A DNA stretch of 64,000 bases, taken from assembly GCA_965603825.1 (NCBI GenBank), contig CBFDEM010000012.1, positions 186,001 through 250,000 of the forward strand, read 5' to 3'. Positions 55,323 through 61,232 of this stretch are shown in pieces; position 1 is the first letter of the stretch, and the number at the start of each line of letters is the position of its first letter. The DNA is from Blepharisma stoltei ATCC 30299. Taxonomy: Eukaryota > Protista > Ciliophora. The notes under the pieces are model-generated. The model searched no databases. It was given only the letters and a program-made list of their open reading frames with translations, and was not told the origin of the DNA. Made by a program: the position numbers and the translations under genes.

Positions 55323-55493
55323 TTAAACCTTAAGCTTGGTTCTTCTCCAGTGTCTCCTCTTTGAATTATAGCGTTGGGTGTTGTCTGTCTTGTAGAAAGC
55401 CCATCTAGGCATAGGTCTGTTTTGTTTTCTTAGCCTTCCCATTGTTTTTTTTGCTCTCAACGATTTGACAGCTCCCTAAATAGTTCTTACCAT
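55323..55493 (-). CDS. RPL39: 60S ribosomal protein eL39 (51 aa; intron 55476-55490 directly after ATG; not in ORF track)
   Basis: M|[50 protein letters not shown]. Confidence 0.95.
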
Positions 55494-55928: not shown

Positions 55929-56969
55929 TTACAATCGTCGCCTTTGCTGAGGTTTAACCTCTTCATTTTGTTGTTGAGGCTCTGGTATTTTTTCATCTTC
56001 CACATTATTTTCTCTTTCTTTTGTTCTTTCCTCATTTCTTGAATTTTTATTCTAAATAGCGTTTACAAAGTTCAAAATAGTCCAATCATAAATAAAATCA
56101 TACTGATAATTTTCCCTAAAAAACAAGTCTTTGAACATCCTTTTCAAATATGCATAATCAGGTCTTTCTTCAAATCTTAGCCCTCTTGCGTAATTCATAT
56201 ATGTAAAAAACTCCTGAGGAAACCCTTGGCAGAGGACTTCATTTCTAGTATCCAGCTTGCGCTGCATGATTAAATCATATTTTTCTTTTTTTGAATGAGC
56301 TCGAATTCCCATCCATGGGAGACTTCCTCGGAGAAAATACATAAAAACAAAGCCAAGACCTTCAATGTCGTCTCGCCTAGACTGCTCAATGCCCATGTGA
56401 GTGTTGACTGCTGCATATCTTGCTGTGCCTGTTAAACTTTTGCCTTCTCGGTAAGGGATGTGTTGTTGGGTTTTCGGGTCTCGATATTTTTTGGCTAAGC
56501 CGAAGTCTATTATAAATATTTGATTTGCTCTTTTCCCAAGACCAATCAAAAAGTTGTCTGGCTTGATATCTCTGTGCAGAAAATTCTTAGCATGGAAAAA
56601 TTCTACTCGAGAAATCATTTGATCTGCCAACATCAATACTGTCTTCATAGAAAACCTACGGTTGCACATTGAAAACAAATCCTCTAGCGAAGGGCCTAAT
56701 AAATCCAGCACCATTATATTGTACTCGCCTTCTACACCATATCAGTGAATATTTGGGATCCCTACGCCACCTTGTAAGAGACGATATAGTTTTGATTCAT
56801 AGAGAAGCTGAGGGTGGCGTGAATCAACACGCTCGAGTTTTATTGCAACTTCTTCGTTAGTTTGAACGTTGGTGCCAAGATAAATTTCTCCAAAAGAACC
56901 ACTACCAATCTTTCCACCAAGTCTGTACTTACCAGCAGCTATACGAATGTCGACATTTCTGCTGCTCAT
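55929..56969 (-). CDS. CK1: Casein kinase 1 (intron 56052-56066)
   Basis: [21 protein letters not shown][TGA=W][36 protein letters not shown]. Confidence 0.95.
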
Positions 56970-58221: not shown

Positions 58222-58315
58222 TAATCACGATAAATCTTAGTTAATATAATTTAACAGTAAAAATATTTTTTCTTATTTTACCATTTTTATAGATTACAAA
58301 AATTAAAATTATAGA

Positions 58316-59005
58316 TTAATGGTTTTCTTGAAATTCTTCTTTTACTTCGAAAGGAAGAAAGTTTTCATCAATATTCAGATCTTTTTTCATCACTGTATTT
58401 TCTCTTATTGTCGAGATTGCTGATAATGTAGCATCTCTTCTTGCCAATTCTTTCGTGGTCCCTACCCCGCTAATAATATGTCTGTTAGGAAATTCCATAT
58501 GGCAGTGATAAATGTTTTTTTCTTTTAAATTATAAGCTTCTTCATACGATAAATGATAAGTTAAACCATTTTCGATACAAATATTGGATAATTCTGTATC
58601 ATATTCTTGAGCTCCGCTGGATCTCTGCAAATTTTTCTGATTTGAAATTCCACTAATTGGGATATCACCATCAAAAACATAGTCTTTTCCTTCAAAAATC
58701 TGTATGATGTGCTTGTTATTGGTAACAGACTCCCATACAGGGTGATAGCTGAGATAGTCAAAAAAATCAGGCTTTTTTATTTTTATTTTCTTCGTGAATT
58801 TCACCAAAGCGCACACGAATTCTTGGCTTTCTATGTCATTTAGTCTTGAAATAATAACAAATTGAATGGGAGCTAAACCTTTAAAAAATTTGATGAATTT
58901 TATTTCTTCTTCAGAGCAGTCGTAATACTTTAGAAAAAATTGATTTCCTGACATCCCGCGCATTTTTATATTATAAAATGCAGTCAAAATTGATAAATAA
59001 ATCAT
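58316..59005 (-). CDS. Putative inactive CRESS/geminivirus Rep-like (HUH) domain fused to dsRNA-binding domain (alternative start 58963)
   Basis: N-half: FFLKYYDCS / FVCALVKFTKKIKIKKPDFFDYLSYHP. C-half: TELSNIC...Y...YHCHMEF...GVGTTKELARRDATLSAISTI. Confidence 0.65.
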   Translation of the reverse strand: MIYLSILTAFYNIKMRGMSGNQFFLKYYDCSEEEIKFIKFFKGLAPIQFVIISRLNDIESQEFVCALVKFTKKIKIKKPDFFDYLSYHPVWESVTNNKHIIQIFEGKDYVFDGDIPISGISNQKNLQRSSGAQEYDTELSNICIENGLTYHLSYEEAYNLKEKNIYHCHMEFPNRHIISGVGTTKELARRDATLSAISTIRENTVMKKDLNIDENFLPFEVKEEFQENH

Positions 59006-59095
59006 CCCCCAAATATTAATTTAATTAATAAATTTTTATTGAAAATTAAATAGATAAATGATGATATAAATCTGAAGTTCGCAAATTATAAATAA

Positions 59096-60127
59096 ATGAA
59101 AATATCATGATTTCTCATTTTTTATATATTGCCTCTTGCTTTGTCTCAAATATCTTGTCCTAACTATTTATGCAGCCCAACAAAATTAGACTCAAATACA
59201 TGCATACTCTATGAATCAAACACATTTCTTCTCCAGCCCTGCAAAGATAACTATGTATGCCCTCCACTAACTTCTGCAGACTCATCTCAGTGCCAGCCAA
59301 AGCCAAGTCCATCCTTGGAAAAATCATGGCCAGGAGAATCATGCCAAAATAACTCAACCTGTGCTTATGGCCACTGTGAAAAATCAATCTGTAAAGGAAA
59401 ATCTCTCAATGAAACCTGCTCTATAAGTGATGAATGTGAGCCTAAACTAAGATGCCTTAATGGCATCTGCCAAGAATTATTATCAGAGTCCTCCAAAGGC
59501 TGCAATACAGATTATGACTGTGAAAATCATTGTGGCTGTGAAAATCACCAATGTGTAAGATATTTAAGCAAATATGAAGGTGATTCAGTAGCAAATTGCA
59601 TAAATAATAGCAGCATGATATGTGGTAGCACAATGTGCTATGAAGAATACTGTTTAGCATTCCTTCAAAATGATAAAGAAATCCCAACAGTTTGCAAATC
59701 AGATGAAGATTGTGCGTCAAGCCATTATGATACTCCAGCATATCCCTTTAAGTTTTACCAGACTTGCCAATGTGGAATAAATAGCTTGGGAAACGCTTAT
59801 TGTAGCTTATTCCCTGGAGATGAACCAATGAATAATTATTTAGATTGGCTTAATTACTGGTTTTATTCGAGGTCTATACAGAAGTGCAACACTGTTAGAA
59901 GAACTTCACTTAATTGCATTAAAACGTGATGGAAGGCGAAATATTATACCACATTTGCTTATATTCTTTCTATTACTATGAATTACCCTCAAATTCAAGA
60001 AAACGATAATTGCGTGGAAAAAATTTACAACCAAGCTTATATTTCTGCTCGAAATAGCTACGAAAAGACAAACAATCACTATAAACTATCAATCCCAGCT
60101 TTAATTTTAACTGCATTTTTATTATAA
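59096..60127 (+). CDS. Cys-rich secreted, probably GPI-anchored surface protein
   Basis: Signal peptide MKIS[W]FLIFYILPLALS, dense Cys, C-terminal hydrophobic tail LSIPALILTAFLL; TGA at 59108 and 59927. Confidence 0.82.
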
Positions 60128-60134
60128 TTCTTTA

Positions 60135-61232
60135 TTACTGCAAAAGAGCCATTACGGTTTCATTAAGGTTATAATGATGGCTTTCCAATAAATTTTTGAC
60201 TCTTTCTTCATCTTTGAATCCCATAGCTTTTATTTTTTCAGTCATTTCCTCTGCAACAGATTTTTTCTTTTCTTCTGGTTTTTTAAATTTCAATAAATTG
60301 TGCTCGTGGTCACTGTTCTCTTCACAAGCTTCACAAAGGTTAAAATCTTTGCATTGGTTGCACTTATATCGAATCCCAAAAATAGTCTTGATCCCACAGC
60401 CATTGCATGAAACCCCAGCGTGAGCAATTTGGCTGAACCGGAGACTTCCTACATTTTTGACTTCTTCCCTGACAATTTTTCTTAATTCTTCTTCAAATGA
60501 AGCTCTATCACACTGTATAGAAACTGGGTTTGACACAATTGGAACAGTAGCTGAATCAATAGAGGAAACATGGACGATTTCCATTCCAGTTTCTTGATTT
60601 TTCTTTATATCAGTATTCTGAGAACTGTCGACTGATTCTGGCCCATTTTGTTTTACATCAGTCAATGGCACATTTGGCTCACACGATTTATCAAGAACTT
60701 CTATAGAATTGGTAATAATAGCTTCATCTTGAGTATTTATCCCGCTAGCCATTTCATGAGTGTTAATAACAGTTCCATTTCCAGCGTCTATTTTCGGTTC
60801 TGGGACAATCTGATTTATAGCATCTATTTTAGGGGTCCCACCTATACATTTATCAGAGACATTAGGAATGGGGCTACTTGACCTGTCTAGTTTAACTTCT
60901 TCAACCACTATAGACTCTTCTATTAGAGGCTCATTGGTTATCTGAGATCTCAGTAGTGGAAGATCATCAATAAATTGTGAGGATTTAGCTTGACCTAAGG
61001 TCCCGAGGTCTTCGACTTGGATAATTGCATTAAGCTCGATCACCCAGATAAGCGCTTCTTCATATTCCAGCTGGGTTTGAACTGTGATTAGTTCTTCATC
61101 TTCATCTAGGTATTTAAAAGTTGGACGAGATGCGTCGAATTGATTTTTGCATAAAGTTATTAAGTCTTCAATCCTCCGAGGAGGAGAGATACTTATGACT
61201 TTGCCTTGGAAAGATAATTTCACGTTCTCCAT
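60135..61232 (-). CDS. p62/NBR1-like autophagy receptor (PB1 - ZZ - UBA)
   Basis: PB1 OPCA motif YLDEDEELITV; ZZ finger CNGC...RYKCNQCKDFNLCEAC...H.H; UBA AMGF...N...L. Confidence 0.88.
   Translation of the reverse strand: MENVKLSFQGKVISISPPRRIEDLITLCKNQFDASRPTFKYLDEDEELITVQTQLEYEEALIWVIELNAIIQVEDLGTLGQAKSSQFIDDLPLLRSQITNEPLIEESIVVEEVKLDRSSSPIPNVSDKCIGGTPKIDAINQIVPEPKIDAGNGTVINTHEMASGINTQDEAIITNSIEVLDKSCEPNVPLTDVKQNGPESVDSSQNTDIKKNQETGMEIVHVSSIDSATVPIVSNPVSIQCDRASFEEELRKIVREEVKNVGSLRFSQIAHAGVSCNGCGIKTIFGIRYKCNQCKDFNLCEACEENSDHEHNLLKFKKPEEKKKSVAEEMTEKIKAMGFKDEERVKNLLESHHYNLNETVMALLQ

Follow-up and report, generated by a model that had tools for sequence, protein, structure and literature searches.

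The window analyzed is the whole 64,000-nt stretch of Blepharisma stoltei ATCC 30299 DNA. It is gene-dense, with a GC content of about 33%, and TGA codes for tryptophan in its genes. The gene under study lies in the ORF at 58316-59005 on the minus strand, which has 229 codons, is open under genetic code tables 1 and 4, and is overlapped by no ORF of at least 80 aa on the opposite strand. Its neighbors are a p62/NBR1-like gene, a gene for a Cys-rich protein, a gene without known function, and a kinase gene. The first of these (60135-61232, minus strand, two genes upstream) encodes a PB1-ZZ-UBA protein like the autophagy receptor p62/NBR1, and the second (59096-60127) encodes a Cys-rich secreted or surface protein without a Pfam match. 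A 36-nt stretch at 59090-59125 is matched at about 83% by DNA contigs from elsewhere in two runs. The casein kinase 1 gene carries a 15-nt intron at 56052-56066, past which its ORF continues. Gene density, GC content, genetic code, and this short intron agree with what the preprint 10.1101/2021.12.14.471607 describes for Blepharisma-type heterotrichs. A short transcript with high coverage and a poly(A) was found at 55323-55460 on the minus strand, and its peptide presumably resembles ribosomal protein eL39.

The initial annotation described the gene as sitting among ordinary host genes with no helicase, capsid, or origin hairpin beside it, and this was borne out across the window. No SF3 helicase, capsid gene, or origin hairpin was found in the window, and comparison of 229 viral ORFs and 38 proteins with it gave matches only to this gene and to one chance site. 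A single nonanucleotide-like word inside the gene has no hairpin, and no terminal repeats of note surround the gene. Codon use is host-like, with a GC3 of 0.29 (0.21-0.49 in 28 window ORFs) and a codon index of 0.73 (0.63-0.77 across the same number of ORFs).

The database protein, whose cluster has one member, begins at Met15 of the ORF. Met15 has an A-rich context, as in neighboring genes, and in a second strain the frame of Met1-14 is broken by a 1-nt insertion directly before Met15. Because of these three observations, the start is likely to be Met15 (58963) and the predicted product 215 aa long. The frame of 215-229 aa proposed earlier is thus intact, with its start moved to Met15. Residue numbers follow the 229-aa frame throughout, and the features are as follows.

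58316..58963, minus strand: coding sequence of 215 aa, from the likely start Met15 of the 229-aa ORF to TAA (ORF calls, database product, start context, RNA contigs over 58322-58929)
58964..59005, minus strand: in-frame upstream extension, Met1-14, probably non-coding (in the second strain, the 1-nt insertion and 2/2 changes nonsynonymous)
58661..58963, minus strand: Rep HUH-endonuclease-derived domain, aa 15-115, predicted to be catalytically dead (sequence, profile, and structure matches; 6 synonymous to 2 nonsynonymous differences over aa 15-120)
58916..58939, minus strand: motif I remnant, aa 23-30, with Lys26 at the invariant Thr position (alignment to Reps)
58811..58843, minus strand: metal-site region and motif II, aa 55-65, with Glu/His/His/His replaced by Leu55, Asp57, Phe63, and Cys65 (alignment to Reps)
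58739..58765, minus strand: FFD-x4-HP, aa 81-89, a short GRS and start of the ssDNA-bridging motif, kept (alignment; published motif role)
58682..58711, minus strand: motif III helix, aa 99-108, with Ile103 at the catalytic Tyr position in the gapless alignment (alignment, model)
58607..58645, minus strand: unconstrained linker, aa 121-133 (1 synonymous to 4 nonsynonymous)
58403..58606, minus strand: dsRBD-like domain, aa 134-201, type-B-like (Pfam, Atlas rows, PDB match; 6 synonymous to 1 nonsynonymous)
58319..58396, minus strand: acidic tail, aa 204-229, pI 4.5 (1 synonymous to 2 nonsynonymous)

The N-terminal domain was previously proposed to derive from the Rep protein of an ssDNA virus. 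Pfam Gemini_AL1 scores 15.7-18 bits on it, below the cut-off of 24. A phmmer search of 1.84e9 representatives at E<=0.001 returned three matches, of which one was the protein itself, one an artefact of fibronectin repeats, and one a Rep fragment with an E-value of 9.6e-4 and 27-29% identity to the query; this fragment is itself recognized by Gemini_AL1 at an E-value of 2.5e-24. P0003, a fish receptor phosphatase, was rejected as a phmmer relative because its score was summed repeat noise. The ESM Atlas feature search with the N-terminal domain scored 0.93, and the feature sets shown were all Rep clusters. The Atlas model, which was made without an alignment of our own, matched a Gemini_AL1 Rep with a TM of 0.81 over 104 residues; the feature score and this TM count as one source. 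The Atlas feature search with the whole protein gave no usable match, and a PDB sequence search with the N-terminal domain returned noise only (best E-value 0.29).

A Rep set was assembled from 42 viral loci collected by a Rep motif, giving 41 distinct domains, of which 33 were aligned. HHalign against this alignment gave a probability of 96.3% and an E-value of 2e-9. The HMM of the 33 Reps was scored on 366 window peptides, one of them being this ORF, which reached 36.4 bits compared with 8.0 for the best of 2000 shuffles and 10.3 for the best of the 365 other peptides. When the collecting motif was cut away, the score was 10.1 bits, compared with 5.3 for the best shuffle and 6.2 for the best other peptide. 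Single-sequence AlphaFold reached a pLDDT of 33, and a Rep-guided model reached 89.6. The best match of the guided model was the TYLCV Rep (7vg8; E-value 2.7e-6, TM 0.79), and in fold searches Z was 12-13 for Reps and about 6 for RRMs; this model and its fold matches are not independent of the Rep alignment and show compatibility only. Since phmmer and the Atlas features and model, which are free of our own alignments, agree on Rep, the N-terminal part of about 100 aa is, judged from its sequence, a CRESS-virus Rep HUH domain by origin. The proposed viral origin was thereby confirmed, as was the Gemini_AL1 relationship, which is sub-threshold in Pfam and clear in HHalign, and the TYLCV Rep came out far ahead of RRMs on the Rep-guided model.

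A host RRM or ferredoxin-fold domain that resembles Rep by convergence would be an alternative source of this fold, and RRMs are present in the fold searches. No Pfam RRM match was obtained, the Atlas feature sets shown consist of Rep clusters, and the sequence searches free of our own alignment select Reps. This explanation is refuted by the sequence evidence and keeps almost no probability.

The alignment to L017 runs without gaps from motif I through motif III, and it agrees with the earlier mapping of motifs I-III and of a GRS-like FFD/HP element. Outside the collecting motif, 6/6 of the columns that are invariant in Reps are replaced: Thr by Lys26, Glu by Leu55, His by Asp57, the HxH of the motif II metal site by Phe63 and Cys65, and Tyr by Ile103. 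FFD81-83 and HP88-89 are retained, and the residues beyond HP differ. The roles of the HUH motifs are described in PMC6668415 and 10.1101/2020.09.01.278671; in the latter, the motif I Thr and the residues following HP read origin bases. In the gapless alignment, the motif III YxxK pattern appears as Ile103/Gly106. In a rival register from a smaller alignment, a 6-residue insertion brings Tyr109 to the catalytic Tyr position, with no Lys at +3. The guided model has a helix (model residues 84-90) and a strand (model residues 95-99) at motif III, and it puts Tyr109 in the last strand. Of the catalytic losses claimed at the outset, that of the metal-binding His residues stands, and the catalytic Tyr was likely lost as well, with the Tyr109 register competing. 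Nicking is unlikely under either register because the metal site is absent. The N-terminal domain is also less basic than that of its viral kin (pI 6.7 versus 8.7-9.1), and it may no longer bind nucleic acid.

The C-terminal part was initially annotated as a dsRNA-binding domain. Pfam dsrm (PF00035) is the top family at 20-21.3 bits (E-value 4e-4), below its cut-off of 23, and Dicer_dimer is the second Pfam match. Residues 157-201 alone give 20.7 dsrm bits, with an E-value of 6.5e-4 against all Pfam. In the Atlas structure search with the whole protein, 5/10 rows were dsrm-bearing clusters at TM 0.35-0.40, below the bar for naming a family. The best PDB sequence matches were to TRBP, mainly its domain 3, and were weak (E-value 0.023 summed over two stretches). 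The likeness to a dsRBD is real and weaker than the likeness to Rep; it is sub-threshold in Pfam and comes nearly all from aa 157-201.

As first envisaged, the gene could encode an RNA-binding protein with one dsRBD, in which the C-terminal domain functionally binds dsRNA and the Rep fold provides an interface for proteins or ssRNA; this version would fit dsrm as the top family, the GxGxxK..A+..A pattern that is present in this domain, and its ratio of 6 synonymous to 1 nonsynonymous differences. The two region-3 lysines and the conserved regions 1 and 2 that mark type-A domains were not found. Region 3 reads K185-E186-L-A-R189, in which Glu replaces the second Lys and one Lys and the Arg are kept. 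The GPxH-type loop, a dsRBD motif, is absent from the domain, which is also acidic (pI 5.4, 7 K+R against 11 D+E). Its closest PDB match, the protein-binding TRBP domain 3, is of type B. Binding of dsRNA is thus not supported in the form first stated, and this version is quite unlikely. Because type-B dsRBDs, which lack the region-3 lysines, bind proteins (PMC5716075), protein binding is a better guess for the domain than dsRNA binding; it may still bind RNA, given the Lys and Arg of region 3. By the tests run, the gene is neither an active member of the Rep family nor a type-A dsRBD protein.

Part of the C-terminal half also recalls Rep. Residues 136-156, the first helix, weakly resemble a Rep middle-domain helix in 3/25 Reps, at equal distance from motif III. 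In position-limited tests, which were post hoc, 13-36/1000 shuffles scored as high, with 13-23/1000 for the best of the 25 Reps. A Rep middle-domain profile was not significant on aa 110-164, where 627/3000 shuffles scored as high, and a middle-domain HMM on aa 110-229 gave 4.8 bits, reached by 23/3000 shuffles. In tblastn, Rep P0021 is colinear with the protein up to aa 179 (E-value 1.8e-8 in the window). The viral part may extend to about aa 150 and may supply the first helix of the dsRBD-like domain. Taken further, the P0021 colinearity, the middle-domain HMM score, and the confinement of the dsrm signal to 45 aa could mean that no fusion exists and that the protein corresponds over its entire length to the N-terminal half of a diverged Rep, composed of the HUH and oligomerization domains, with a partial or chance likeness to dsRBDs. 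Against this, 0/3 such Reps give a dsrm match, aa 157-201 alone are recognized by dsrm, the Atlas rows that cover the C-terminal part consist of dsrm clusters, and no score was obtained against the exon-1 tail found in the nearest clade, the tiny-intron viruses described below. A protein without fusion is therefore very unlikely.

No orthologue was found in the protein searches, which comprised a word search and phmmer over 1.84 billion representatives. Near the protein's own length, the word search returned only the protein itself among 186 candidates, and longer fusion forms numbered 0/588 in this search, which is a weak one. A viral_contigs scan with the N-terminal domain hit 0/37 stretches, plasmid tblastn gave no match, and PHROGs gave one weak match to an unknown family (E-value 0.074). 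Neither a Rep-dsRBD fusion nor a ciliate Rep gene came up in the literature searches, and the words "virus", "HUH", and "dsrm" are absent from the main text of the Blepharisma preprint 10.1101/2021.12.14.471607. The view that this architecture has no described counterpart accordingly held in the protein and literature searches run.

The search with the L017 Rep yielded 36 relatives, one of them named Aguamentivirus racskinis of the Geplanaviridae. In a Rep tree of 61 rows, for which the motif filter had dropped 18/37 fetched proteins, the query remained unplaced on a branch of 4.65. Clade profiles scored 44.8, 42.4, 38.3, 37.1, and 36.8 bits on the query for environmental groups, and two geminivirus groups scored 28.9 and 24.4 bits. 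The top clade leads by a small margin in a sample that had been collected around it. By these profile scores, the closest viral relatives appear to be environmental Geplafuvirales rather than geminiviruses, so the geminivirus/genomovirus-type donor suggested earlier is probably not a geminivirus proper.

In 9/10 genomes of the top clade (27 loci examined), a 21-23-nt GT..AG insert lies at one site in Rep, directly after a CRKxK motif, and its removal restores the helicase frame (L043, L044, L050, L051, L052, L054, L055, L056, and L057). These inserts occur in three different phases. In L053, the insert is at the identical site and the gene reads through in frame. The insert is best read as a tiny spliceosomal intron. 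The capsid genes of the top clade stop at TAA in 10/10, making a host in which TAA encodes Gln less likely. No in-frame TGA was gained under table 4 in the capsid ORFs in 10/10, and a host with UGA as Trp is thus not indicated by these viruses. Introns are 21-29 nt long in Nyctotherus (PMC2633312) and 15-16 nt long in heterotrichs (10.1101/2021.12.14.471607). The living relatives likely infect a standard-code protist with tiny introns, possibly a ciliate. Their host is probably not a Blepharisma-type heterotrich because introns of 21-23 nt are longer than those of heterotrichs. The Geplanaviridae have been associated with plants, invertebrates, and vertebrates (PMC11945456), and ciliate hosts have been inferred from the genetic code for some CRESS viruses (PMC12796364, PMC7468197).

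A second allele is present in one DNA run; it shows 25 differences in the ORF, 23 of them from Met15 on, and contains no stop and no frameshift. Over about 900 nt, the two strains are separated by 32 differences and by 1 gap (about 3.5% divergence), and the end of one second-strain contig, at 58307, is a short loose G-rich stretch. The coding sequence has 14 synonymous and 9 nonsynonymous differences, with a pN/pS of 0.15-0.27, an estimate based on 23 sites in a single strain pair. The two domains together have 12 synonymous and 3 nonsynonymous differences, with a pN/pS of 0.08-0.11 and p<1e-4 under every transition weight tried. By part, the ratios are 6:2 in the Rep domain, 6:1 in the dsRBD-like domain, 1:4 in the linker, and 1:2 in the tail. 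Since the listed subset of neighbor variants shows 17 synonymous to 7 nonsynonymous in four genes, the constraint on this gene resembles that on ordinary host genes. A single known copy with no orthologue found and the catalytic residues apparently all gone could also be a decaying viral insertion without function, transcribed by chance. Its frame is open in both strains, the synonymous excess is strong and limited to the domains, its codons are host-like, and the core lacks indels despite the very long branch. Decay is thus largely refuted and highly improbable.

The four runs used represent RNA because the 15-nt casein kinase 1 intron is spliced out in 4/4. All come from one study, the gene is covered by RNA contigs in every one of them, and 14/23 of the coding differences recur in these contigs. 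Two runs have gene contigs of low depth (12.5 and 6.9), and the other two, which carry both alleles at similar depth, reach 135-271. The depth of neighboring genes varies between runs within about 2-3-fold. Together, these data hint at induction in mixed-strain cultures, and no more than a hint is warranted because contig depth is a poor, strandless measure of expression from one study, whose runs are given without stages. Conjugation of Blepharisma uses mixed-strain cultures, and many domesticated transposases, some with incomplete triads, are induced (10.1101/2021.12.14.471607). Expression and purifying selection, both named as checks at the outset, were recovered, and along with host-like codon use they bear out the idea of domestication.

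The gene is very probably a domesticated, nuclease-dead viral Rep domain in an undescribed fusion with a dsRBD-like domain. Under the proposed course of events, a Geplafuvirales ssDNA virus would have infected an ancestor, and the 5' half of its rep would have entered the germline. The helicase would then have been lost and a dsRBD-type module joined on. In the present protein, the open beta-sheet and the FFD/HP motif could grip single-stranded DNA or RNA without nicking, as an RRM does, and the acidic type-B-like dsRBD could dock on a protein partner, which may be Dicer-like, another dsRBD protein, or the protein itself. Such an adaptor would act mainly in mating cells. A non-cutting developmental role of this kind in the small-RNA or genome-rearrangement machinery is tentative, somewhat short of even odds. 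The explanation as a whole, a dead Rep and dsRBD-like host gene under purifying selection that serves as a developmental adaptor, is given a probability of about 0.45.

The same domains could instead form a restriction factor, in which the dead Rep would either mask the origin of the virus or act as a poison in oligomers of its Rep, and RNAi or degradation machinery would be recruited through the C-terminal domain. The retained FFD and HP of the DNA-binding face, the weak post hoc match of aa 136-156 to the Rep middle-domain helix, and the apparently protist-infecting related viruses would suit this role. The nearest Reps are only 27-29% identical, the motif I Thr and the post-HP residues that read origin bases are altered, and the middle-domain profile on aa 110-164 is not significant. 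In addition, such genes often evolve fast, whereas this one is constrained. The origin-decoy idea of the initial annotation is weakened by the changes in the base-reading sDBM and in motif I, and a restriction factor is unlikely.

The developmental adaptor can be compared with several known systems. With the Rep HUH domain of the Geplafuvirales (Gemini_AL1; TYLCV Rep 7vg8/1l2m; Geplanaviridae-like), the ciliate gene shares the fold, the order and spacing of motifs I-III, and FFD..HP. In contrast to these Reps, it has replaced metal ligands and a probably replaced Tyr, has no SF3 helicase, capsid, or origin, lies on a host chromosome, and is fused to a dsRBD-like domain. The origin-binding domain of polyomavirus large T and the DNA-binding domain of papillomavirus E1 belong to the same fold family (Z 8.6-8.9 with the guided model). 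Both are HUH-derived, non-nicking DNA binders. They are viral, keep their helicase, and bind dsDNA origins, whereas the ciliate gene is a host gene. As a separate observation, row 8 of the ESM Atlas search groups 87 Rep-like proteins (463 aa), 32% of which have a DnaJ domain, an arrangement reminiscent of polyomavirus T antigen. The type-B dsRBDs, namely domain 3 of TRBP, PACT, and Loquacious, gave the best PDB match and, like the ciliate domain, carry no complete pair of region-3 lysines. Where TRBP, PACT, and Loquacious have two type-A dsRBDs, the ciliate protein has a viral domain, and its dsRBD is single; the similarity is weak.

Domesticated ciliate transposases (PiggyMac and Pgm-like proteins; the PiggyBac, DDE, and MULE homologues of Blepharisma) are likewise mobile-element nucleases that became host genes, and they often have an incomplete catalytic site and are developmentally induced (10.1101/2021.12.14.471607). 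These are DDE enzymes, whereas the ciliate Rep gene derives from an ssDNA-virus HUH protein, and its genome-editing role is only inferred. The gene most likely works as a domesticated adaptor comparable to the dead ciliate transposase relatives. Endogenous CRESS-virus elements (Liu 2011, PMC3198968; Kinsella 2020, PMC7493932) also place Rep in eukaryote genomes and point to a host, and the main texts of these two papers do not mention ciliates. The ciliate piece differs from them in being fused, ameliorated, and under purifying selection.

It is rather unlikely that the gene is both the first ssDNA-virus replication domain in ciliate small-RNA-guided rearrangement and fossil proof that Geplafuvirales with 21-23-nt introns infect ciliates. 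If this is true, a host would be assigned to an orphan virus lineage. The tiny introns of the nearest viruses provide an independent clue to a host, one that can be tested. The gene is direct genomic evidence that CRESS viruses have reached a ciliate germline. It is a small, single gene, amenable to knock-down and binding assays. Ciliates are known for tamed DDE transposases, and host machinery would gain a new source in a rolling-circle HUH domain tamed from an ssDNA virus.
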